Positions 35,591 through 49,856 of a stretch of 64,000 nt of DNA are shown in pieces (position 1 is the stretch's first letter; each line of letters starts with the position of its first letter). The notes beneath the pieces were generated by a model. The model searched no databases, was not told the DNA's origin, and worked only from the letters and a program-made list of their open reading frames with translations. The translations under genes and the position numbers were made by a program. Source of the stretch: Fibrobacterales bacterium (GTDB lineage Bacteria; Fibrobacterota; Fibrobacteria; Fibrobacterales; JAOPTW01); contig JAOPTX010000015.1 in assembly GCA_051532055.1 (NCBI GenBank), forward strand, positions 153,334 to 217,333, written 5' to 3'.

Positions 35591-36322
35591 ATGAAAAAGA
35601 GGTTGAGTAACATTGTACATCAGAAATTTGCTCTACTAGATGCTCTGCTTTTTGGTGATCAATGCAGCTACTGCCATGAGAAAAAGCGTAAAAATTATCT
35701 TATGTGTGATACATGTACCCAAAAGCTATCACTGTTTTCAGAGTCTGATGCGCAAGTACAGCTGCCAAATAGTGATAATAGATTGTTATCACTTTTTCCT
35801 ATGACAGAATTAACTAAAAAGATTATCCATGATATTAAGTATAACCAACTACCGTCTCTCGCGACCCAATTATTAAAAGATACTCCCGTCAATTACTTTC
35901 ATGATATTGATTCACAGACACTATTAGTTCCTGTTCCATTACATAGTAAAAGAATGAGAGAGCGAGGGTATAATCAAGCTAAAGTAATTGCTCAAGGTGT
36001 TGCAGAGAGGACGGGGGCTACTGTCGTATCTCACCTATTAAAAAAGAATCATCATACAGGAAGTCAAACAAAATTGGGTAAAGAAGAGCGTCATCAAAAT
36101 ATGCAGAACGTTTTTAGTCTTATAAGAGGAACATCAATATCGGGAAAAAATGTAGTTGTTATTGATGACGTGTTTACAACAGGAGCAACAACTCAATCAT
36201 GTATAAATGCTTTGGAAAAAGGGAATCCTCAAAGCTTACATGTATTTACTCTCGTTCGGGCTGATATACAAGAAAAAAGTGATTTTGCAAAAGAGTTACA
36301 ATTGCACAATAATAATTTATGA
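35591..36322 (+). CDS. comF: ComF-family phosphoribosyltransferase-fold protein
   Basis: N-terminal Cys pairs (CSYC..CDTC) and the PRPP motif VVVIDDVFTTGATT. Confidence 0.8.
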   Translation: MKKRLSNIVHQKFALLDALLFGDQCSYCHEKKRKNYLMCDTCTQKLSLFSESDAQVQLPNSDNRLLSLFPMTELTKKIIHDIKYNQLPSLATQLLKDTPVNYFHDIDSQTLLVPVPLHSKRMRERGYNQAKVIAQGVAERTGATVVSHLLKKNHHTGSQTKLGKEERHQNMQNVFSLIRGTSISGKNVVVIDDVFTTGATTQSCINALEKGNPQSLHVFTLVRADIQEKSDFAKELQLHNNNL

Positions 36323-37213
36323 AACGATTGAGTTTCCACCCTTGTGGGTGGCGATTTCAAGGCGTTGATAGGCAATAGTTAATGTATCTGGAAGTATTGA
36401 CTCAGGGTTTTCTGAAGAGAGTTCTAAAATTTCTGCAACTCCTGAACTACAGGTTGTTTTTACTTCGTCACTATTACATAAAAATACTTTCGCAGCTACC
36501 TCATCACTAATTCTTCGAATAACTTGGAGCGCTTGTTCTTTTGCGCAATCATAAAAACTGGCAACTAATCGGTGCTCTTGATACCGTGCAAGAAGATCAT
36601 ACGGACGTAAATGTTTTTTACAAATGTCGGCAAACTCTTTAAGAATTTGATCGCTATAGACTTTAGAATACTTTTGGCAGATTGCGCTGTAATCATCAAG
36701 AGCAAGCATTGCAAATGATATCTTCTTTGCTTTTTCTTTAACAATATCAATCTGCTTTTCTGCTGCAATGGTAAAATGATCTCTTTTAAGGAGCTCAGTT
36801 AATGGATCAACAGTTGTATATTCTTTGAGCTCTGTTTCAGCCTGGTTCTTCATTACTTGTCTTTGGATTTCTTGTAAGACAGATGTTAAGTTAAGTGGGC
36901 GATAGAGTCGAGGGAACTTTCTGTTGTCGTAGGGAACAGTTTTTTGCTCTGGTTTAGGGTCATTGCAGACGAAGAGAATTGGTGTATCTTGATATCTAAT
37001 ATCATTTTTAATCTCTTGAGCAAAACTGTAATTATCTCTTGATTGGAGAGGAGTATCGATGAGCACAGCTGCTGGGGTATTATTTGTATCGAGTGTATGC
37101 CAAGTGTGTTCTTCTGATTCCGTAAAGAGCACTACATATTGAGAATCGAGTACTGCCTGAAATGCATCTCTATCTTCACTCTTACAAAATACAACTATAC
37201 TCTCTTTAAGCAT
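36317..37213 (-). CDS. pseudo-receiver plus degenerate GGDEF-domain protein (A-site lost, I-site RxxD kept)
   Basis: GGDEF fold markers DPLTELLKRDHF, LALDDY, TCSSGVAE and AYQRLEIATHKGGN are present. The signature reads RPYD-LLARY-QEHRL where RxxD-x5-GG(D/E)EF is expected. Confidence 0.75.
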   Translation of the reverse strand: MLKESIVVFCKSEDRDAFQAVLDSQYVVLFTESEEHTWHTLDTNNTPAAVLIDTPLQSRDNYSFAQEIKNDIRYQDTPILFVCNDPKPEQKTVPYDNRKFPRLYRPLNLTSVLQEIQRQVMKNQAETELKEYTTVDPLTELLKRDHFTIAAEKQIDIVKEKAKKISFAMLALDDYSAICQKYSKVYSDQILKEFADICKKHLRPYDLLARYQEHRLVASFYDCAKEQALQVIRRISDEVAAKVFLCNSDEVKTTCSSGVAEILELSSENPESILPDTLTIAYQRLEIATHKGGNSIVS

Positions 37214-38977: not shown

Positions 38978-40147
38978 ATGATTGTTTTTTGGCGCGAGAT
39001 GACCGTGTCCCAGTTTAAAAAAGATTTGACGAGTAGTGAACTGGTGGATCTTCTTTTTAAATATACTGCAAAGATTGCTGAGGAGCGTAGCCTTGACAAT
39101 CTTTTAATCTTAATGAATGACCTCGGTAAAAAACTGGTTGTGTGTGATCGCTGTACCCTGTGGCTTATTGATAAAAACAAACAAGAGGTATGGACTAAAG
39201 TTGCTCATGGGGTGGATGAAATTAGGATGCCCATCGGTAAGGGTGTTGTTGGAGAATGCATCATGACAGGTCAATCAATAATAATTGATAACGCCTACAA
39301 TCACCCTACTTTTAATAAAACAATTGATAAAGAGACGGGTTATCAAACGCGTTCAATTATTGCGGAACCTATTTATGATGGAGGTGGTTCTATCATGGGG
39401 GTGTATCAAGCAATTAATAAACTTACTGAAGAAGGGCGATTTACACAATCTGATCTAGAACACATGAATCTCAGTGCAACCTATCACGGCAAAGCTCTTG
39501 AGTCTGCAATGCTCCTTAAGGAGATTGAGAGCACCCAGAGCGACCTTGTTTTTATTTTGGGTGAAGCGGGGGAGAGTCGATCAAAAGAAACGGGTAATCA
39601 TGTGAAGCGGGTGGCGGGGTACTGTGAGATTCTATCGCGTGCTTATGGATTGCCTGACGAAGAAGTTGAGTTGATAAAAATAGCTTCACCACTTCATGAC
39701 TTAGGTAAAATTGCTATTCCGGATTCGATATTGAAAAAACCTGGTAAATTGACATTCGAAGAGTTTGAGATTATGAAAACCCATGCGCAAATTGGTGAGG
39801 ATATTTTAATGGGCTCAGACCGACCACTCATAAATGCCGCTCGAATTATTGCTGGTGAACATCATGAAAAATGGAATGGAAAAGGGTACCCACGTGGGAC
39901 TTCAGGAGAAGCAATTCATCTCTATGGAAGAATTGCCGCAATTGCTGATGTATTTGATGCATTAGTGAGTGATCGGTGCTATAAAAAAGCTTGGCCTATC
40001 GAGAAAGTCTTGATTCTTTTTCGAGAAGAACGAGGAGAGCACTTTGATCCATCTTTGGTAGATCTCTTTTTTGAAAACCTCCAGGAATTTATCCGTATAA
40101 AAGAGGCCTATGTTGATGAATTTGATGCGTCTCAAGCAGTGTATTAA
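38978..40147 (+). CDS. GAF-domain / HD-GYP-domain protein (putative c-di-GMP phosphodiesterase)
   Basis: The GAF-like N-half contains CDRCTLWLID..GVVGEC. The C-half has HDLGKIAIPDSIL and HHEKWNGKGYPRG (HD-GYP). The start may instead be the ATG at 38999. Confidence 0.85.
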   Translation: MIVFWREMTVSQFKKDLTSSELVDLLFKYTAKIAEERSLDNLLILMNDLGKKLVVCDRCTLWLIDKNKQEVWTKVAHGVDEIRMPIGKGVVGECIMTGQSIIIDNAYNHPTFNKTIDKETGYQTRSIIAEPIYDGGGSIMGVYQAINKLTEEGRFTQSDLEHMNLSATYHGKALESAMLLKEIESTQSDLVFILGEAGESRSKETGNHVKRVAGYCEILSRAYGLPDEEVELIKIASPLHDLGKIAIPDSILKKPGKLTFEEFEIMKTHAQIGEDILMGSDRPLINAARIIAGEHHEKWNGKGYPRGTSGEAIHLYGRIAAIADVFDALVSDRCYKKAWPIEKVLILFREERGEHFDPSLVDLFFENLQEFIRIKEAYVDEFDASQAVY

Positions 40148-43361: not shown

Positions 43362-43459
43362 ATTTTAGCATGAATATACGGCGTTATTTGAGTTTCGACG
43401 TACTCAAATACGCTTTCAATCAAAATGCCTTGTATCTCCATACTTAAAGTCTAATCTAC
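43353..43459. repeat. 107-nt nested inverted-repeat element between convergent genes
   Basis: The outer 15-bp arms are GTAGATTAGATTTTA and TAAAGTCTAATCTAC (one G:U), and they overlap the rimO stop. The inner hairpin at 43381-43413 has a 9-bp core TATTTGAGT/ACTCAAATA. Confidence 0.6.
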
Positions 43460-43494: not shown

Positions 43495-44151
43495 TTACTT
43501 GCGTTTACCTGTGATTTTGTCTTCGAGTTTAAAAAGGCTGCCGTATAGCTGAATCAGGTCGTCAATCCAGATAGCGTCACGCTCTGAAATTAGTTTACAG
43601 ACTTCAGAAACGTTGTTTGCATTGTTGTAAGGGCCCACTTGATTGTCAATTTTAGCAAAAGGTCTCATGAAGACTGAAGCTGAAAATTGAGCCCTCAAAG
43701 AGCGGTGAAGGCGGTCAAAGAGGCGTTTTTTAACTGTTTGAATGTCTTGCTGAATTGTATTGGGAGGTACTTTTTCACTCAGCTTTTTCTGAATATCGGC
43801 AAGTTCGGAAGCAATTGATTCTTTGTCTGGCTTTGGTATATAGAGTTGCTTATTGATAAAGAAGCGCTTAAGGTTTTTAAATTCTCGTTCTAAGAGTTCA
43901 GGACCAAAGGTGTTTGCAAAAGGTGTAAAGTCTTTGGTTATTTCTTTTATTTTTAAGTGTTTACCTTGGCGTTCTGCCCATGTATCAAGTCGCTCTATCA
44001 ATCGTAGTGCTATAGGTTCATTTCCTACTAAAAGGAATGACTCAGCTTGAATTATTATGGTGTCAGCATAGGCGTATTTATGTGTTCCACTTACTGTGTC
44101 ACTTTTCAGTTGGGCTATTCTTTTTTTCCACTCATTAATACGCGTTTGCAT
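43495..44151 (-). CDS. hypothetical cytoplasmic protein, last gene of the stator operon
   Basis: 218-aa ORF 5 nt after the MotB-like stop. No TM or signal peptide, helical character, no motif recognised. Confidence 0.5.
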   Translation of the reverse strand: MQTRINEWKKRIAQLKSDTVSGTHKYAYADTIIIQAESFLLVGNEPIALRLIERLDTWAERQGKHLKIKEITKDFTPFANTFGPELLEREFKNLKRFFINKQLYIPKPDKESIASELADIQKKLSEKVPPNTIQQDIQTVKKRLFDRLHRSLRAQFSASVFMRPFAKIDNQVGPYNNANNVSEVCKLISERDAIWIDDLIQLYGSLFKLEDKITGKRK

Positions 44152-44156
44152 TTTAA

Positions 44157-44828
44157 TTATCCGTCTATTTTTGAATCGATTGTAGGGACTCGGATGATCT
44201 CTACTCGTCTATTTTTCATACGATTGGATTCGTGACTGTTTTCAACCTTGGGGCGGAACTCACCAAAACCTGCAGCAAAAATTCTTGATGGTACTAATGT
44301 ATTACTTTTCTTCATAAGTATGTTTACCACATTAGTCGCTCTCTTTGTAGAGAGTTCCCAGTTTGATTTAAAGAATTTAGAATTAATAGGTATATCGTCT
44401 GTATGCCCTGCCACCATGAGCATTTCATTCTTTCCAAGACTACTTCCTAAGACGTCACTTATTTTTCGAAGGACATCTTTACCTTTCTTTTTAACTATTG
44501 AACTACCGGTCGAGAAAAGAAACTCTGCTTGTATTTCAATTTTACCATCAGTTAAAGTGACAGACCCATCTCTGAGAGAGTTTCCGAGGGCTTGTGCAAG
44601 AAGAGCGTCACGCTCGCGCTCTGCTTTCTCCTTTGCGGCTTTCTCTTTTTGAAACTCCTCTTCTTTACGAGTGAATGCATCGATTTGTTTTGTTAGCTCT
44701 GCTTCTTTATCAGATTTCAGTGAAGACATAAATATAAATGCGATAAGAAAGAGTACGAAGAGAGCCATGGTCAAGTCGGTAAACATAATCCATGGAGTTT
44801 CATCGTGTTTATCTAGGTGAATAGCCAT
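44157..44828 (-). CDS. MotB/OmpA-family stator subunit (ZorB-like)
   Basis: N-terminal TM with a conserved Asp (WIMFTDLTMALFVLFLIAF), a coiled-coil linker, and an OmpA-type peptidoglycan-binding C-domain (GHTDDIP..NWELSTKRA..NRRVEI). There is no gap to the upstream gene. Confidence 0.8.
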   Translation of the reverse strand: MAIHLDKHDETPWIMFTDLTMALFVLFLIAFIFMSSLKSDKEAELTKQIDAFTRKEEEFQKEKAAKEKAERERDALLAQALGNSLRDGSVTLTDGKIEIQAEFLFSTGSSIVKKKGKDVLRKISDVLGSSLGKNEMLMVAGHTDDIPINSKFFKSNWELSTKRATNVVNILMKKSNTLVPSRIFAAGFGEFRPKVENSHESNRMKNRRVEIIRVPTIDSKIDG

Positions 44829-46622
44829 CTAAACCTCTGGCTCCTGGTCATACTCTTCAAGTGATTCACCTTGTAATTTCACTTGCTCTAAAACTTCAAT
44901 AAGAATTTCTTGAGTCTTGAGTGCATTTTCAACCAACACTTCTGAGGCTTTCTCATGGAAGGCCTCGAGGGTGGATTCAAGCTTCTCATAAAAACTATTT
45001 TGGTCATCTGTTTCAGATTCAGAAGAAGAGATGTGTTCAATTAAAGATTCAACTCCTATAGTAAACATCTCGAGAGATGCTTGGAACTCAACTTGGTTGA
45101 TTTTCATGAGGTTACCGCCCTCAGAAATATTTTCAGTAAAGTTCATGAGTGAACTCATTTGCTCTGAGTATTGGGTTTCAAGTTCTTTACCTAATTTTTC
45201 TTGTATCTCAAAATTGACTTTTGCCGCTTGGGCGAGGGTTTCGAACTCGTCTTGTAGCTTGCTAAACCCATCTCGACTTATCATACTGATAGACTCTTTG
45301 AGGCTTTCTGTAAACTCGGTTGTTTTTTGGAATACGGTATCCATCTGACCTTGATTATGGCTCATGTATTCAGTTTGAAGCCCCCTGGATTGCTCTTGGT
45401 GGGTATTGAGTAGTTCCATCTGTTTTTCAATTTGCTGCCCTTGAGCTTCTGGTATGGACTGTATTACAGTGTGGAGATTGTCGAGTTGAGTTGAAACACC
45501 TTGTGTACTCAGCTCAGCAATTTCTTTTTGCATATCAGGAATGGTTTTAATAAAACTGTTCAGCTCTGAAAGGCGCTCAGCAATTTCATTTGATGTGTTA
45601 CTGCTAATTTCTTTTTGGGATTCAAGAATTGAGTGGGCGCTATTCTCAACTTGAGAACTAAATGATGCGAGAAGTTCTCTTTGAGTTTCAATGGCCTCTG
45701 AGGCACTTTGGGAATGTTTGCTAATGATGTCATCAAGAACGGATTTATGAGAGCCAGAGAGTTGTTCAATTACTAGAGAGTTTGCATCTGTGATTGATTG
45801 TTGCAATGTGGTAAACGTAGACTCTAGTTTGTCACTAATTTGGTTACTCAGTGATGCAGAGTTATTGGTTAGCTGTGTACTCATATCGTTTGAGTGTTCA
45901 GTAAGTTTACTGCCAAGGGAATCTACAAATTGTGAGAGGTTACTGCTGAGCTCTGTAATGAGTTGTTCATTACGATTCTCCTGTTCAGGAGCGAGCTGGG
46001 GAATGAGATAAAAGTGAGTGTACTCTTCTACTTCGGACATCATCTCAATATAAGCATTTTTAACCACAGAGTTTGCGACGCTTAAAAGCATGAATGCAAT
46101 GAGACCTGTTAAACTGGTGCCAAAAATACCATTCATGTCAGAGAAAATTGTAGTTATAAGTGTTTGAATTTCAAAACTTTCACTCATTGAACTTCCGGCT
46201 GTGGAAATTGCACCCATCAAGCCAAAAAAGGTGCCAAGAAGACCGAGAGTCATAGTAAGATTGGCTGCTGAAGAGCCTAGTTTACTCGAAGCGCGAGCAG
46301 AGAGTATTTCAGAAAATGCAGAGAGGTCGACATGTTGATCGCGAGATTGTAGATCTTTGAGGATTTCATAGCGCTGATAGATAATTCTATCAGAAGGTTC
46401 AATAGTCGAATTTCCCGTACTCTTTTGTTCATGGATAGCATCTATTTCTGCTTGGGCAAAGGCGAGATTCTTAAGGTTCTTTAATTGGGTATATGCAAAG
46501 ATAGCAAGGAGCACTCCCCATATTACATAGCCATAAAGGGGGAACTGAAAATAGAGACACCCAATAAGACCTGCAAGTCCGAGGATGCTGAGAAAGATTA
46601 TTTTCCGTACAGCTGCTTTCAT
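44829..46622 (-). CDS. MotA/ExbB-like channel protein with a helical C-terminal tail of about 400 aa (ZorA-like architecture)
   Basis: Two N-terminal TM segments, then LGLLGTFFGLMGAI and GIFGTSLTGLIAFMLL (MotA_ExbB signature). Residues from about 200 to 597 are Ser/Gln/Glu/Leu-rich with no further TM. Confidence 0.75.
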   Translation of the reverse strand: MKAAVRKIIFLSILGLAGLIGCLYFQFPLYGYVIWGVLLAIFAYTQLKNLKNLAFAQAEIDAIHEQKSTGNSTIEPSDRIIYQRYEILKDLQSRDQHVDLSAFSEILSARASSKLGSSAANLTMTLGLLGTFFGLMGAISTAGSSMSESFEIQTLITTIFSDMNGIFGTSLTGLIAFMLLSVANSVVKNAYIEMMSEVEEYTHFYLIPQLAPEQENRNEQLITELSSNLSQFVDSLGSKLTEHSNDMSTQLTNNSASLSNQISDKLESTFTTLQQSITDANSLVIEQLSGSHKSVLDDIISKHSQSASEAIETQRELLASFSSQVENSAHSILESQKEISSNTSNEIAERLSELNSFIKTIPDMQKEIAELSTQGVSTQLDNLHTVIQSIPEAQGQQIEKQMELLNTHQEQSRGLQTEYMSHNQGQMDTVFQKTTEFTESLKESISMISRDGFSKLQDEFETLAQAAKVNFEIQEKLGKELETQYSEQMSSLMNFTENISEGGNLMKINQVEFQASLEMFTIGVESLIEHISSSESETDDQNSFYEKLESTLEAFHEKASEVLVENALKTQEILIEVLEQVKLQGESLEEYDQEPEV

Positions 46623-46640: not shown

Positions 46641-47582
46641 TTACTTTTTATTTTTAAAGAGGTCGAGTTGTCCTTGTGAAAATCCGCGCGAAAATATTTC
46701 CCACTTAGTTTTGTACCAGTGTGATAATTCGAGAGAGATTCCCAGGCAAAAGTCGATATAATCTTCTGTAAATGCTCTGAAACCATTGTCCCATAAACCT
46801 AGTGGGTTCCACACTCTATTACCAATAGCGTTAAAAAGTGCAGCTTCAGTAGCGTAATAGCGTTTAGGTTGTTTTTGAATACCTGTGATAAACTTCTTTT
46901 GTGCAAGTGTGTAGAGGGAGCTTCGTATGTTTGTAATTACATTTTGATCTATGTTACGAAGACCGGCTTCAAGGGTAGGGAGTATCTTGGTTACAGGGGT
47001 CGAAATAGAATTTTGATGCCAAAGATTCGATCCATTTTTTTGAATATGGGTTGCTCGTGAATAAGTTGTAACAAGATTTTTTTCTGAATCGCCTACCATC
47101 AGATGGAGTGTTTGTAAAAAGAAATCTTTTATCTCTTTGGTGCGATGGCCAACTTTAAGTCGGTACCCCTCATCACTTTTTTCAATCCAGCCACCTTCTC
47201 TAAGGACGGGAAGCATGACATCAGCGGTGAGTCTCTGAGCCCATTTAGATCTGAAGTCTGCAAATTTATCTTCTATTTCTTTATTCAGGGCGTTAAACTC
47301 TCGTTGGCAAAATTTGAGACACTCTTCTGATTCAGAAATATATTCACTCTCTAGGGTGAAGTTTTTCTGAGATTGTTCAATATGTTCCCTTAATATAATG
47401 GAGTATGAGTTGTTCATTGAATGACTCAATTGTTGAACTACCTCTTGTTGAGGCAAAAAGCTTTTAAGGTCAACAATTGACTGACCGGTAAACTGTTTGA
47501 AAGCTTTCCTGAAGTTACTATCCAAAGGGTATATTTTCGGTTGAATTTCGAAGTAGAAATATAGAAATTCTAGGGGGATCAA
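46641..47582 (-). CDS. hypothetical cytoplasmic protein
   Basis: 313-aa ORF 18 nt upstream of the MotA-like gene. No TM and no recognised motif. The start is uncertain: the TTG at 47582 lacks a Shine-Dalgarno site. Confidence 0.45.
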   Translation of the reverse strand: MIPLEFLYFYFEIQPKIYPLDSNFRKAFKQFTGQSIVDLKSFLPQQEVVQQLSHSMNNSYSIILREHIEQSQKNFTLESEYISESEECLKFCQREFNALNKEIEDKFADFRSKWAQRLTADVMLPVLREGGWIEKSDEGYRLKVGHRTKEIKDFFLQTLHLMVGDSEKNLVTTYSRATHIQKNGSNLWHQNSISTPVTKILPTLEAGLRNIDQNVITNIRSSLYTLAQKKFITGIQKQPKRYYATEAALFNAIGNRVWNPLGLWDNGFRAFTEDYIDFCLGISLELSHWYKTKWEIFSRGFSQGQLDLFKNKK

Positions 47583-47639: not shown

Positions 47640-48332
47640 TTAAAAAGTAGTTTCTATTGATTTCCAGATAGATTTCGCGATTTTCTTCTCTGTTATTGGT
47701 TTTTGACTCATGTTGATAGCATTCATGATTCGATTGTTTTTGTTCACCGATTGGGTAAGCTTCAATACGCCATCCATTTCAAGATAAGTACCAAATGCAT
47801 TGTTCTCAATAGTAGCACCTTTCACAGATACCTCTCCATTTGCAACAGTAATACCATAGCGGTTCTCGGTAAATGACCCACCACTAATGTGAACATCCTT
47901 AGAATTTTCGATCCATACACCATAATGGTTATTGATAAATTGACTCTCTTTTAATGTACCGTGAACATTGAGAAATGAATTTTTAAAGCCGTTCATAATC
48001 ACAACATAATTCATGACAATTGGTGATTGAGACCCATTAATATGCAGTCCAACCCAATGATTACTCGGGTTCTCGGCATGAAAAACAATGTTTTTTTGAG
48101 GGGTACCAAGAAATCGGATATGGCCTCTCAGGAGGAGCTTTGTGTAGTTTCTAAATTTGAGTACAACACCACCTTCAATCGTAAGAGTGTCTTCAGTATT
48201 GTTAAAAAGGTTTTCGTCGATTATATAGGGGCTATCACCCTGGTGAAGATAGACAGAACCCTTAAGAGAGGTTAGTATGGTGTTGGCATTGAGAGTTGTA
48301 ACGAGTAGCGCAATTGATAAAAATTTTATCAT
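47640..48332 (-). CDS. secreted parallel beta-helix repeat protein
   Basis: Signal peptide (MIKFLSIALLVTTLNA), and PbH1-like repeats of about 22 aa (NNHYGVWIENSKDVHISGGSFTENRYGITVANGEVSVKGATIENNAFGTYLE). Confidence 0.6.
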   Translation of the reverse strand: MIKFLSIALLVTTLNANTILTSLKGSVYLHQGDSPYIIDENLFNNTEDTLTIEGGVVLKFRNYTKLLLRGHIRFLGTPQKNIVFHAENPSNHWVGLHINGSQSPIVMNYVVIMNGFKNSFLNVHGTLKESQFINNHYGVWIENSKDVHISGGSFTENRYGITVANGEVSVKGATIENNAFGTYLEMDGVLKLTQSVNKNNRIMNAINMSQKPITEKKIAKSIWKSIETTF

Positions 48333-49123
48333 GGAACCCTCTGAAGTGTAACAGACTGAATAATTTGATAATTTGGGAATAGCTTGTTTGCAATTTTAAG
48401 ACTGACAGTTCCGGAAATATCAAAATTGCCAAACTCCAGATCACCATCATCAATGTTAAACACAAGAGAACCTTGGCCAAGAATAAAATTATCTTCTGCT
48501 ATCATTAGTGCACTCTCTTCTATTTTGTATTTAAGAGTGGTTAAAATTTTGGCAAATGACTGATCACCATTGGAATAAATATCATTGACTTTAAACCATT
48601 TATAAAGGTAGTTGCTCCTGTTTTCTCCTGTAGGAATTTTGAGTTGCTTTTCCCAGGTGTCCCCGATGTATGTTTCATGCCTGGGGAGAGATGGCTGAAT
48701 TTTAAGGAGGATGTTTGCGAGGTTAAAACCTGATACTTCCATTTCATCTGCAGCATTATTTTTTTCAAAGTCCTTGATTTCACCATAGGGATTAATTTTA
48801 AACTCAGATTTTTGAGAAAGAAGATAGTGCTCAATATGACGACACTCTTCTACGGTATATTGATTAGATCTGAAATCAATAGAGTCTATTCCGATTAAAA
48901 ACCGGCTGGTTTTGTCGTCAAAAGCTGATAGCAATGATTTGGTGAAGTAGATTTGCGCTTCACTAAAGAAACTACTCTCAGAGTCACCCGAAATCAGTTG
49001 GAGCTTTGTTTGTAAGAAATAATGACGTGGGGTTTCAGAAGTAAGATTAAAAGAGAGTTGTTTTGTCTCTTTTTGACACGCTGTAAATATGAGGATTGTT
49101 AATAAAAGGAGTGTTTTACCCAT
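48329..49123 (-). CDS. hypothetical lipoprotein
   Basis: Lipobox LIFTAC and beta-rich character. Overlaps the next gene by 4 nt (ATGA). Confidence 0.55.
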   Translation of the reverse strand: MGKTLLLLTILIFTACQKETKQLSFNLTSETPRHYFLQTKLQLISGDSESSFFSEAQIYFTKSLLSAFDDKTSRFLIGIDSIDFRSNQYTVEECRHIEHYLLSQKSEFKINPYGEIKDFEKNNAADEMEVSGFNLANILLKIQPSLPRHETYIGDTWEKQLKIPTGENRSNYLYKWFKVNDIYSNGDQSFAKILTTLKYKIEESALMIAEDNFILGQGSLVFNIDDGDLEFGNFDISGTVSLKIANKLFPNYQIIQSVTLQRVP

Positions 49124-49127
49124 TAAG

Positions 49128-49736
49128 TTAGTCTTCGCTAAAATCTATTGTAACATTTGTTAAATTTAAGTCTTTTAGCTGCGACTTTTGGGATAAATTT
49201 CGATACTCATCATTATTCTGGATGATTAACCCAAGTATTTTTGCACAATCTTCAGCTGTTTCTGCTACAACGAGCTCCTCAATATCTGGTGAAAATAGAT
49301 AGAATTTACCATCTTTTTGCCATTGAAGGGTTTTGATATTAGCTTCATCAAGTGCTGTTTCAACAATGGTTGGTTTCTTGATTTGTGAAGTAATAATCTC
49401 TTTGAGCTCATCAGGTGGAGTTGTTTTTAGAATACATTGATTGATTTTGTAGTTCTTAGCTTTTTTGGTAATGGTTTTATCAAATTCAGCTGAAGTAAGA
49501 AGAATAGGGGTGCGTTTGTATTGAGGAAGTTTGCGGATTTTTGTTGCGAGGTCAAATCCAGTGATACCTCCACCAAGATTATATTCTACAAGGAATGCAT
49601 CAAAAGTGTGTGATTTAATTAATTTCAAGGCATCCTGAACATTATTGGCAGGAAAAGTCTCTGCAATATCACTCAGATCTTTGGAGGTTTGCGCAGTTGC
49701 CTCTTTGCTGTCATCTAAATGGAGTATGTTAAACAA
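49128..49736 (-). CDS. single-domain receiver protein with Glu at the phospho-acceptor position plus a C-terminal domain of about 80 aa and unknown function
   Basis: CheY-like landmarks are present: LHLDDS (acidic pair), FLVEYNL (E51 where the Asp is expected), ILLTSA (Thr) and ILKTT (Lys). TTG start 4 nt after GAGGTGA. Confidence 0.7.
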   Translation of the reverse strand: MFNILHLDDSKEATAQTSKDLSDIAETFPANNVQDALKLIKSHTFDAFLVEYNLGGGITGFDLATKIRKLPQYKRTPILLTSAEFDKTITKKAKNYKINQCILKTTPPDELKEIITSQIKKPTIVETALDEANIKTLQWQKDGKFYLFSPDIEELVVAETAEDCAKILGLIIQNNDEYRNLSQKSQLKDLNLTNVTIDFSED

Positions 49737-49789: not shown

Positions 49790-49817
49790 ATTATACTTTC
49801 GGCTATTATGCACTGAA
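49790..49817 (-). promoter_or_regulatory. candidate promoter TTCAGT-N16-TATAAT for the seven-gene operon
   Basis: Read on the minus strand, directly downstream of the trxB terminator and about 50 nt upstream of the TTG start. Confidence 0.3.
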
Positions 49818-49823
49818 AAATGA

Positions 49824-49856
49824 TAAAAAAAGGGGAGTTTCTAAAAAAACTCCCCT
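49824..49856 (-). terminator. rho-independent terminator of trxB
   Basis: 10-bp stem AGGGGAGTTT/AAACTCCCCT with a minus-strand T-run (plus-strand AAAAAAA at 49824-49830). Confidence 0.7.

Follow-up and report, generated by a model that had tools for sequence, protein, structure and literature searches.

The present analysis concerns a 64,000-nucleotide stretch of a Fibrobacterales genome (contig JAOPTX010000015.1, positions 153,334 to 217,333), referred to below as the window, and within it the open reading frame (ORF) at 43495-44151 on the minus strand, here called the target, which lies directly behind a pair of genes for a Zorya-type motor. We estimate at roughly 0.65 the probability that its product is a strongly diverged DUF2894/ZorG homologue, serving as a non-enzymatic adaptor or regulator and as the fourth subunit of a type III-like operon of the order partner, ZorA, ZorB, target. 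The gene is the last in a tight, co-directional array of seven minus-strand genes, whose intergenic distances range from -4 to 57 nt. The array and the features that border it are as follows, with the basis of each assignment in brackets.

43385-43410, no strand assigned: perfect 9-bp inverted repeat with an 8-nt loop (TATTTGAGT / ACTCAAATA), between the convergent ends of a RimO-like gene and the target (repeat search)
43495-44151, minus: target gene for a soluble, basic, all-alpha protein of 218 amino acids (aa), the ZorG-position (DUF2894-like) fourth subunit (ORF, family alignment, AlphaFold2 (AF2) model)
44157-44828, minus: ZorB3-like subunit, 223 aa, an N-terminal transmembrane (TM) helix with a conserved Asp and a C-terminal OmpA-type peptidoglycan-binding domain (Pfam, PADLOC, NCBIfam)
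44829-46622, minus: ZorA3-like subunit, 597 aa, a membrane head with a helical cytoplasmic tail (PADLOC, hhalign, hidden Markov model (HMM), hydropathy)
46641-47582, minus: partner gene in the ZorF (DUF3348) position, an ORF of 313 aa that probably encodes 294 aa, soluble (ORF and orthologue comparison)
47640-48332, minus: secreted right-handed beta-helix protein, 230 aa, with an N-terminal signal-like segment (Pfam Beta_helix 1.2e-8, NosD 1e-5)
48329-49123, minus: lipoprotein-like protein, 264 aa, N-terminus MGKTLLLLTILIFTAC (ORF; present in 66/67 loci)
49128-49736, minus: receiver-domain-only response regulator, 202 aa, first gene of the co-directional array (Pfam Response_reg 1e-11)
49790-49856, minus: terminator-like hairpin (49856-49831) closing the upstream trxB-like gene, followed by a promoter-like site (49819-49790) (consensus scan only)

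The target begins with ATG, separated by five bases (TTAAA) from the TAA stop of the ZorB-like gene, with which it is co-directional and invariably linked, and the two are probably co-translated. The protein is hydrophilic (grand average of hydropathy -0.53) and basic (isoelectric point 9.6), and its maximum Kyte-Doolittle hydropathy over 19 residues is 1.18, indicating that there is neither a TM-like segment nor a hydrophobic N-terminus. The initial annotation had described a 218-aa ORF at this position, starting 5 nt after a MotB-like stop and lacking both TM segment and signal peptide, and all of this is confirmed here, with the strand specified as minus. Its description of the protein as rich in K, E, L and R comes close; the commonest residues are K24, I21, L21, E15, R14 and A14, so that isoleucine has to be added to the list. 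It had also recognised no catalytic motif, which holds for the single sequence, as the target alone gives no family at a useful E-value in Pfam, PADLOC, NCBIfam or PHROGs. The target is a real, functional gene under strong purifying selection and not a chance ORF, because synonymous changes far outnumber non-synonymous ones: over codons 138-218 there are 41 synonymous and 0 non-synonymous differences from a 90%-identical orthologue, and 41 and 7, respectively, from a 64% orthologue. The N-terminal 137 codons evolve much faster than this segment.

The protein had been called an orphan, a label that has to be given up. A word-indexed homologue search returned only the target itself and two close relatives; an HMMER scan of 1.84 billion cluster representatives yielded 30 related clusters (50% identity clusters), and a genome scan with the pattern RDPIW[VI]ED found 72 species-level loci, essentially one per species representative. 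The family alignment is marked by W58, IPxxER, RLxRSxRA, VGPYN and ERDPIWVEDF..LY motifs and by a C-terminal tail rich in K and R. All 72 loci come from assemblies named Fibrobacter, Fibrobacteraceae, Fibrobacteria or 'Fibrobacteres', a distribution that is a lower-bound observation because the scan was limited to this one pattern. In each of two metagenome-assembled genomes, RGIG8275 and Horse_feces13, the whole cluster occurs twice, on separate contigs (L024/L044 and L038/L054, respectively), which could represent paralogous systems or else bin contamination or strain mixture.

The linkage to the motor genes is invariant. Among loci with enough DNA, a ZorB homologue lies directly upstream of the target homologue in 72/72, and a ZorA homologue and a partner of about 294 aa lie further upstream in 67/67 each; the lipoprotein-like gene is present in 66/67 and the beta-helix gene in 65/67, the pair being missing in L004. 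The same gene order is retained in relatives from metagenomes that are 24-31% identical. Loss of synteny with the stator pair had been named beforehand as a possible refutation of the initial annotation, and the opposite is observed: the target belongs to the stator-pair system. We dropped the idea of a toxin-antitoxin component or a transcription factor, since no helix-turn-helix or toxin family was matched and the ZorAB linkage is invariant.

That the stator pair itself is Zorya-like, as had been supposed, is well supported. The best PADLOC model for the 223-aa protein is ZorB3 (6.6e-39) and that for the 597-aa protein is ZorA3 (2.9e-13). The former also matches Pfam OmpA (1.2e-16) and NCBIfam NF006547 (1.7e-36), and keeps the proton-carrying Asp, D18 ('FTDL'), at the start of its TM helix. 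HMMs were built from canonical type III loci located on replicons of Caballeronia, Aquabacterium, Ralstonia, Cupriavidus, Burkholderia and Paraburkholderia; a Parabacteroides plasmid match to OmpA was discarded as a stand-alone OmpA gene. The Fibrobacterota ZorB family scores 120-143 bits against the canonical type III ZorB HMM, with controls below 3. For ZorA, hhalign aligns the head with the canonical DUF802 head at 1.2e-11 and a probability of 97%, and the HMM comparison gives 60-75 bits against 26-34 for reversed controls, the latter values being high because of the coiled-coil tail. Pfam DUF802 itself is not matched by the 597-aa protein, which gives a weak match to MotA_ExbB (E=0.041). 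Its hydrophobic segments fall within residues ~2-43 and ~165-187, and the tail of roughly 390 residues is helical and apolipoprotein-like. As judged from these profile comparisons, the pair is shown to be homologous to type III ZorAB.

Flagellar MotAB, ExbBD and TolQR, which are motors of 5:2 composition, resemble the pair in that the ZorB-like protein has a MotB-like TM Asp and an OmpA-like domain. In contrast, MotA, ExbB and TolQ do not have the ~390-residue tail of the ZorA-like protein, and their systems have no DUF2894-like partner. Neither flagellar nor TonB nor Tol-Pal genes are adjacent to the array, no flagellar genes occur in the 36-52 kb part of the window, and the scores of MotB-type NCBIfam models stay far below their cut-offs. 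With its long tail and without flagellar context, the pair does not fit a flagellar stator.

In type III Zorya, ZorF is DUF3348 and ZorG is DUF2894 (PMC8565338, PMC11890865), and the annotated canonical loci that we collected read DUF3348, DUF802, OmpA family, DUF2894, the last gene encoding 189-232 aa and abutting or overlapping the OmpA gene. The gene order of type III has been given both as zorFABG and as zorGABF (Hu 2024, PMC11946911). The names also clash between sources: the PADLOC-DB model PDLC00654 (DUF2894) is labelled 'ZorF3|ZorF', and Payne 2021 and Mariano 2025 call DUF2894 ZorG, the usage that we follow. The Fibrobacterota cluster shares with type III Zorya (zorF-zorA-zorB-zorG; PMC8565338) the four-gene, same-strand order, in which one accessory gene stands on either side of zorA and zorB, as well as the clear homology of ZorA and ZorB. 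It differs in its shorter ZorA (491-645 aa, as compared with 698-1031 aa in canonical loci), in its vertical conservation throughout a phylum and in usually adding the pair of a lipoprotein and a secreted beta-helix protein, together with the receiver protein in the clade of the window.

A further difference lies in the gene upstream of zorA. The 313-aa ORF at 46641-47582 probably starts at an internal TTG at 47525, giving 294 aa; MDSNFRKAF forms the N-terminus of its orthologues, at the site that corresponds to this start. Fifteen diverse members share 41 invariant positions and a conserved C-terminal motif, WYxxKWxxxxRGxxxGQLxxF, and none of the 15 has a Pfam or PADLOC match by hmmscan. An identification with DUF3348 found no support: custom HMMs gave 2.0 bits, the same as controls, hhalign gave P=0.55, and comparison by eye was also unconvincing. 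Because this partner has no similarity to DUF3348, we file the locus as a type III-like variant; on its sequence it is not a textbook member of type III Zorya.

The target fits the ZorG slot, lying directly after zorB with 218 aa as compared with 189-232 aa, and it is highly probable that it is the functional and positional equivalent of the fourth subunit of a ZorAB3-type system. Like ZorG (DUF2894, PF11445, PDLC00654 'ZorF3'), the target is encoded on the same strand directly after a ZorB3-type gene, is comparable in size, soluble and all-alpha, and, some 40-45 residues before its C-terminus, has a GP(Y/L)N loop that leads into a helical hairpin; its C-terminal tail is likewise basic. Unlike ZorG, it falls below every curated threshold, has an extra helix at 107-125 and carries a much shorter K/R tail. 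The canonical examples collected here are all from Betaproteobacteria, whereas the target family was recovered only from Fibrobacterota in the motif-limited scan. The contigs of the most divergent family members are mostly too short to bridge the target family and DUF2894.

Beyond position, a weak but collinear similarity connects the two families. When 32 family members were scanned one by one against Pfam and PADLOC, DUF2894 was the top recurrent family in both, being matched by 2/32 members in Pfam (best 1.1e-3) and, as model PDLC00654, by 4/32 in PADLOC (best 7.3e-5), and the matches always map to the GPYN/ERDPIW region. Custom DUF2894 HMMs score the target family at up to 14.1 bits with a median of 5.2, as compared with maxima and medians of 5.0 and 0.8 for reversed and 3.0 and -1.1 for shuffled controls; the alignment is collinear and nearly full-length, placing HMM positions 7-166 on residues 11-199. 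The search in the reverse direction reaches 17.6 bits against 7.6 for controls. By hhalign, the target family and DUF2894 align over 170-191 collinear columns with P=0.0045, which ranks first among 13 comparisons, some of them with reversed controls. The aligned identity is about 12%. By eye, a plausible alignment can be made at the N-terminus (LDAWR.RG.DR.DPVRF.FIEAL.RRA...GEARR.LD.RL with L..LRK....P.WR..YA..LL.RA.EY.AVG...EA.....RL..W) and another at the C-terminus (NAGPLNS..LVHRSL.LM.E.SP.YL..FL.Y.D.L.W with VGPYN....L......V.ERDPIWVEDF..LY..L), and both families end in a basic C-terminal tail. Homology of the target to DUF2894 thus appears likely. The statement that the function is unassignable from sequence is not borne out, in view of the DUF2894 (ZorG) position and of this weak collinear similarity.

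The AF2 model of the target has eight helices and a predicted local distance difference test score (pLDDT) of 83. Compared by helix order alone, it corresponds to the AF2 model of a Ralstonia DUF2894 protein as listed here.

Helix 1: residues 2-18 in the target, 3-18 in Ralstonia DUF2894
Helix 2: 23-42 in the target, 25-39 in DUF2894
Helix 3: 45-73 in the target, 44-73 in DUF2894
Helix 4: 84-100 in the target, 86-96 in DUF2894
Helix 5: 107-125 in the target, no helix but a disordered loop in DUF2894
Helix 6: 130-161 in the target, 118-144 in DUF2894
Loop: carrying GPYN in the target, GPLNS in DUF2894
Helix after the loop: 178-191 in the target, 152-169 in DUF2894
Last helix: 193-217 in the target, 171-190 in DUF2894
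Tail: short and K/R-containing in the target, disordered and basic in DUF2894

The most conserved part of the target, residues ~140-218, has a pLDDT of 61-80, and the faster-evolving N-terminal bundle one of 82-97. Conservation combined with lower model confidence in the C-terminal part fits an interface that would become ordered on binding. A Foldseek search with the target model gave no match below E=1.5 (best E 1.5 in PDB and 2.2 in BFVD), and the matches to an Hsp70 lid and to designed bundles were rejected as generic helical matches. PDB sequence searches with the profiles of both families found nothing below E=0.2.

Several observations weigh against the proposed identification with ZorG. 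The target alone matches no DUF2894 model in Pfam or PADLOC even at E<=10, and no relative reaches the 25-bit gathering score of Pfam DUF2894 (PF11445), the best seen being 14.3 bits. The hhalign probability is just 8-10%, DUF3348, used as an unrelated helical control, still attained P=0.014 in a local alignment of 65 columns, and by HMM a single outlier stood at 9.5 bits; because of these three results the sequence evidence alone is not decisive. The structural correspondence is one of helix order alone, and the Ralstonia model is of low confidence (pLDDT 63). The slot directly upstream of zorA, where DUF3348 (ZorF) is expected, is filled by the conserved 294-aa protein, which is not recognisable as DUF3348. 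In the literature searched we found no mechanism for ZorG, and the docking of the target that we propose below is itself inferred. Finally, defence systems are not usually inherited vertically throughout a phylum and amid housekeeping genes, as this cluster is.

The last point leads to the alternative that survives best, although we regard it as rather unlikely: that the target is the same kind of subunit in another biological role, the Fibrobacterota cluster being a lineage-wide, vertically inherited housekeeping machine of the cell envelope and not one dedicated to phage defence. The target would then be a structural or regulatory subunit of that machine. The parts would suit such a machine, comprising a peptidoglycan-anchored, ion-driven motor of the ZorAB type, two cytoplasmic partners and the lipoprotein/beta-helix pair in 65-66 of the 67 loci; the conservation of this pair suggests that they are periplasmic or outer-membrane partners of the motor. 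The lipoprotein-like and beta-helix genes overlap by 4 nt, and a faint match to DUF6263 was seen in one relative of the lipoprotein-like protein. The distribution also suits it, as all 72 loci are from Fibrobacter, Fibrobacteraceae or Fibrobacteria, at essentially one per species representative, and the gene order is fixed over deep divergence. The flanks of the window are of housekeeping type (thioredoxin reductase, glutamate synthase small subunit, RimO, a SPOR protein, S21 and a YqeY-like gene), and so are those of the relatives (trxB, rimO, S21, a GatB/YqeY-like gene, dCMP deaminase, DNA polymerase III delta and greA); the upstream dCMP deaminase flank is kept in 56/72 loci and also in the distant L091. 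GC content is flat across the region, at 0.36-0.40 without anomaly, and the PADLOC scan of the seven array proteins gave no matches besides those of the motor pair. With housekeeping flanks, conserved synteny and flat GC, the cluster shows none of the features of a mobile defence island. Canonical type III operons on Caballeronia, Aquabacterium and Ralstonia replicons (L008, L009 and L083) also lie among metabolic and transport genes and not among defence or mobile genes, and DUF2894 matches on 135 Ralstonia megaplasmid records hint at lineage-wide conservation there as well.

Defence systems are typically patchy in distribution and borne on islands, a typical feature and not a formal requirement, and some defence systems are known to be conserved on chromosomes. 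Downstream of the cluster the flank is variable, with an argininosuccinate lyase gene in only 22/64 loci, and this 3' side may be a hotspot of rearrangement or insertion. The one type III Zorya tested for anti-phage protection, the canonical system of Stenotrophomonas, lowered phage plaquing in E. coli (PMC8565338).

The strong hairpin and the promoter-like site at 49790-49856 likely mark the start of the seven-gene unit. The inverted repeat at 43385-43410 is likely an AT-rich bidirectional terminator, for which it is a candidate; it was not called by a scan for G+C-rich terminators. The receiver-only regulator adjoins the cluster only in the clade of the window, L001, L002 and L004, and its best NCBIfam match is a weak one to the PorX receiver domain. 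Elsewhere in the window, a REC-GGDEF-like protein at 36317-37213 (minus) and a protein with GAF and HD domains at 38978-40147 (plus) are assigned to cyclic-di-GMP-type signalling by the Pfam annotations of their orthologues in L002 and L004.

A second alternative is non-orthologous replacement: an unrelated, lineage-specific helical protein might have come to occupy the DUF2894 slot, the residual similarity being compositional or due to chance. The failure of the single target sequence to match DUF2894 significantly, the hhalign probability of at most 10% and the nearly equal local performance of the DUF3348 control would be expected from this, and replacement seems to happen in this system, where the gene in the second accessory slot seems either to have been exchanged or to have diverged too far to be recognised. 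What makes the alternative improbable is that the similarity is collinear, nearly full-length and above reversed and shuffled controls in both search directions, that two independent curated DUF2894 models are the top recurrent ones and point to the same motif region, and that the helix order matches, with the GP(Y/L)N loop in the same place and a basic tail at both C-termini.

Taking the target as a diverged ZorG, we can tentatively outline its action by analogy with the better-studied type I system. There, ZorA5B2 is a peptidoglycan-binding, proton-driven rotary motor, whose ~70-nm cytoplasmic tail passes the signal and recruits the soluble components ZorC and ZorD (PMC11946911); for type III, a role of ZorF and ZorG in regulating ZorAB was suggested by Payne et al. 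(PMC8565338). By the same scheme, the ZorA5B2 assembly of Fibrobacterota would be a peptidoglycan-anchored, ion-driven rotary motor with a tail that recruits soluble partners. The target would act as a non-enzymatic adaptor or regulator, docking on the tail of ZorA, on the 294-aa partner or on both by means of a near-invariant C-terminal module composed of the RLxRSxRA helix, the GPYN loop and the ERDPIWVEDF helical hairpin. Its basic surface and K/R tail may contact an anionic ligand, e.g. nucleic acid or membrane, and the faster-evolving N-terminal three-helix bundle could confer lineage specificity.

The initial annotation had taken the genes directly downstream of zorAB in Zorya loci to encode effector or partner proteins and had accordingly named the target as the prime candidate for the output module. 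The linkage to a Zorya-like pair does place the target in the system. In type III, though, an accessory gene stands at either end of zorAB, and the 294/313-aa gene is consequently an equally good output candidate. For the target as output module we found no positive support. The target resembles ZorC, ZorD and ZorE of types I and II in being soluble and encoded beside zorAB, and the DNA-binding ZorC is also basic, but it is much smaller and has no helicase, nuclease or HNH domain; the ZorC/D/E models of PADLOC matched none of the seven array proteins and none of the 32 family members, which places the locus outside types I and II. That the target is an enzymatic or toxic effector is very unlikely, since, despite its location directly downstream of zorAB as for type I/II effectors (PMC11946911) and the extreme conservation of its C-terminal 80 residues with invariant polar R147, S151, N176, D192 and D198, it lacks ZorC/D/E similarity and any match to a catalytic family or fold (Pfam, PADLOC, NCBIfam, PHROGs, PDB sequences, PDB folds and BFVD), its fold is small and all-helical, its most conserved segment is modelled with less confidence than the variable N-terminus, as fits an interface better than an active site, and invariant polar residues are no fewer in the 294-aa upstream partner. 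We consider the target more likely to be an adaptor or a regulator than an effector.

In number of loci, type III Zorya comes close to types I and II combined, with 6,401 as compared with 7,742 (PMC8565338). With the present locus, the DUF2894-like subunit would gain a second, deeply separated lineage, so that the few residues common to both lineages, i.e. the N-terminal W/R-rich helices, the RxxRSxRA-like helix, the GP(Y/L)N loop and the hairpin that follows, are the obvious candidates for a functional interface. Since the Pfam and PADLOC models miss two of the four genes, Zorya-III-like systems are under-counted outside Proteobacteria. The target is best described as part of a Fibrobacterota-wide variant of the known type III Zorya kind, half of which is detected by current models. 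Its phylum-wide conservation and the accompanying envelope genes raise the question of whether this motor family is always a defence system; if the cluster is indeed an envelope machine, the type III Zorya architecture could be, or could derive from, a housekeeping motor that also interferes with phages.

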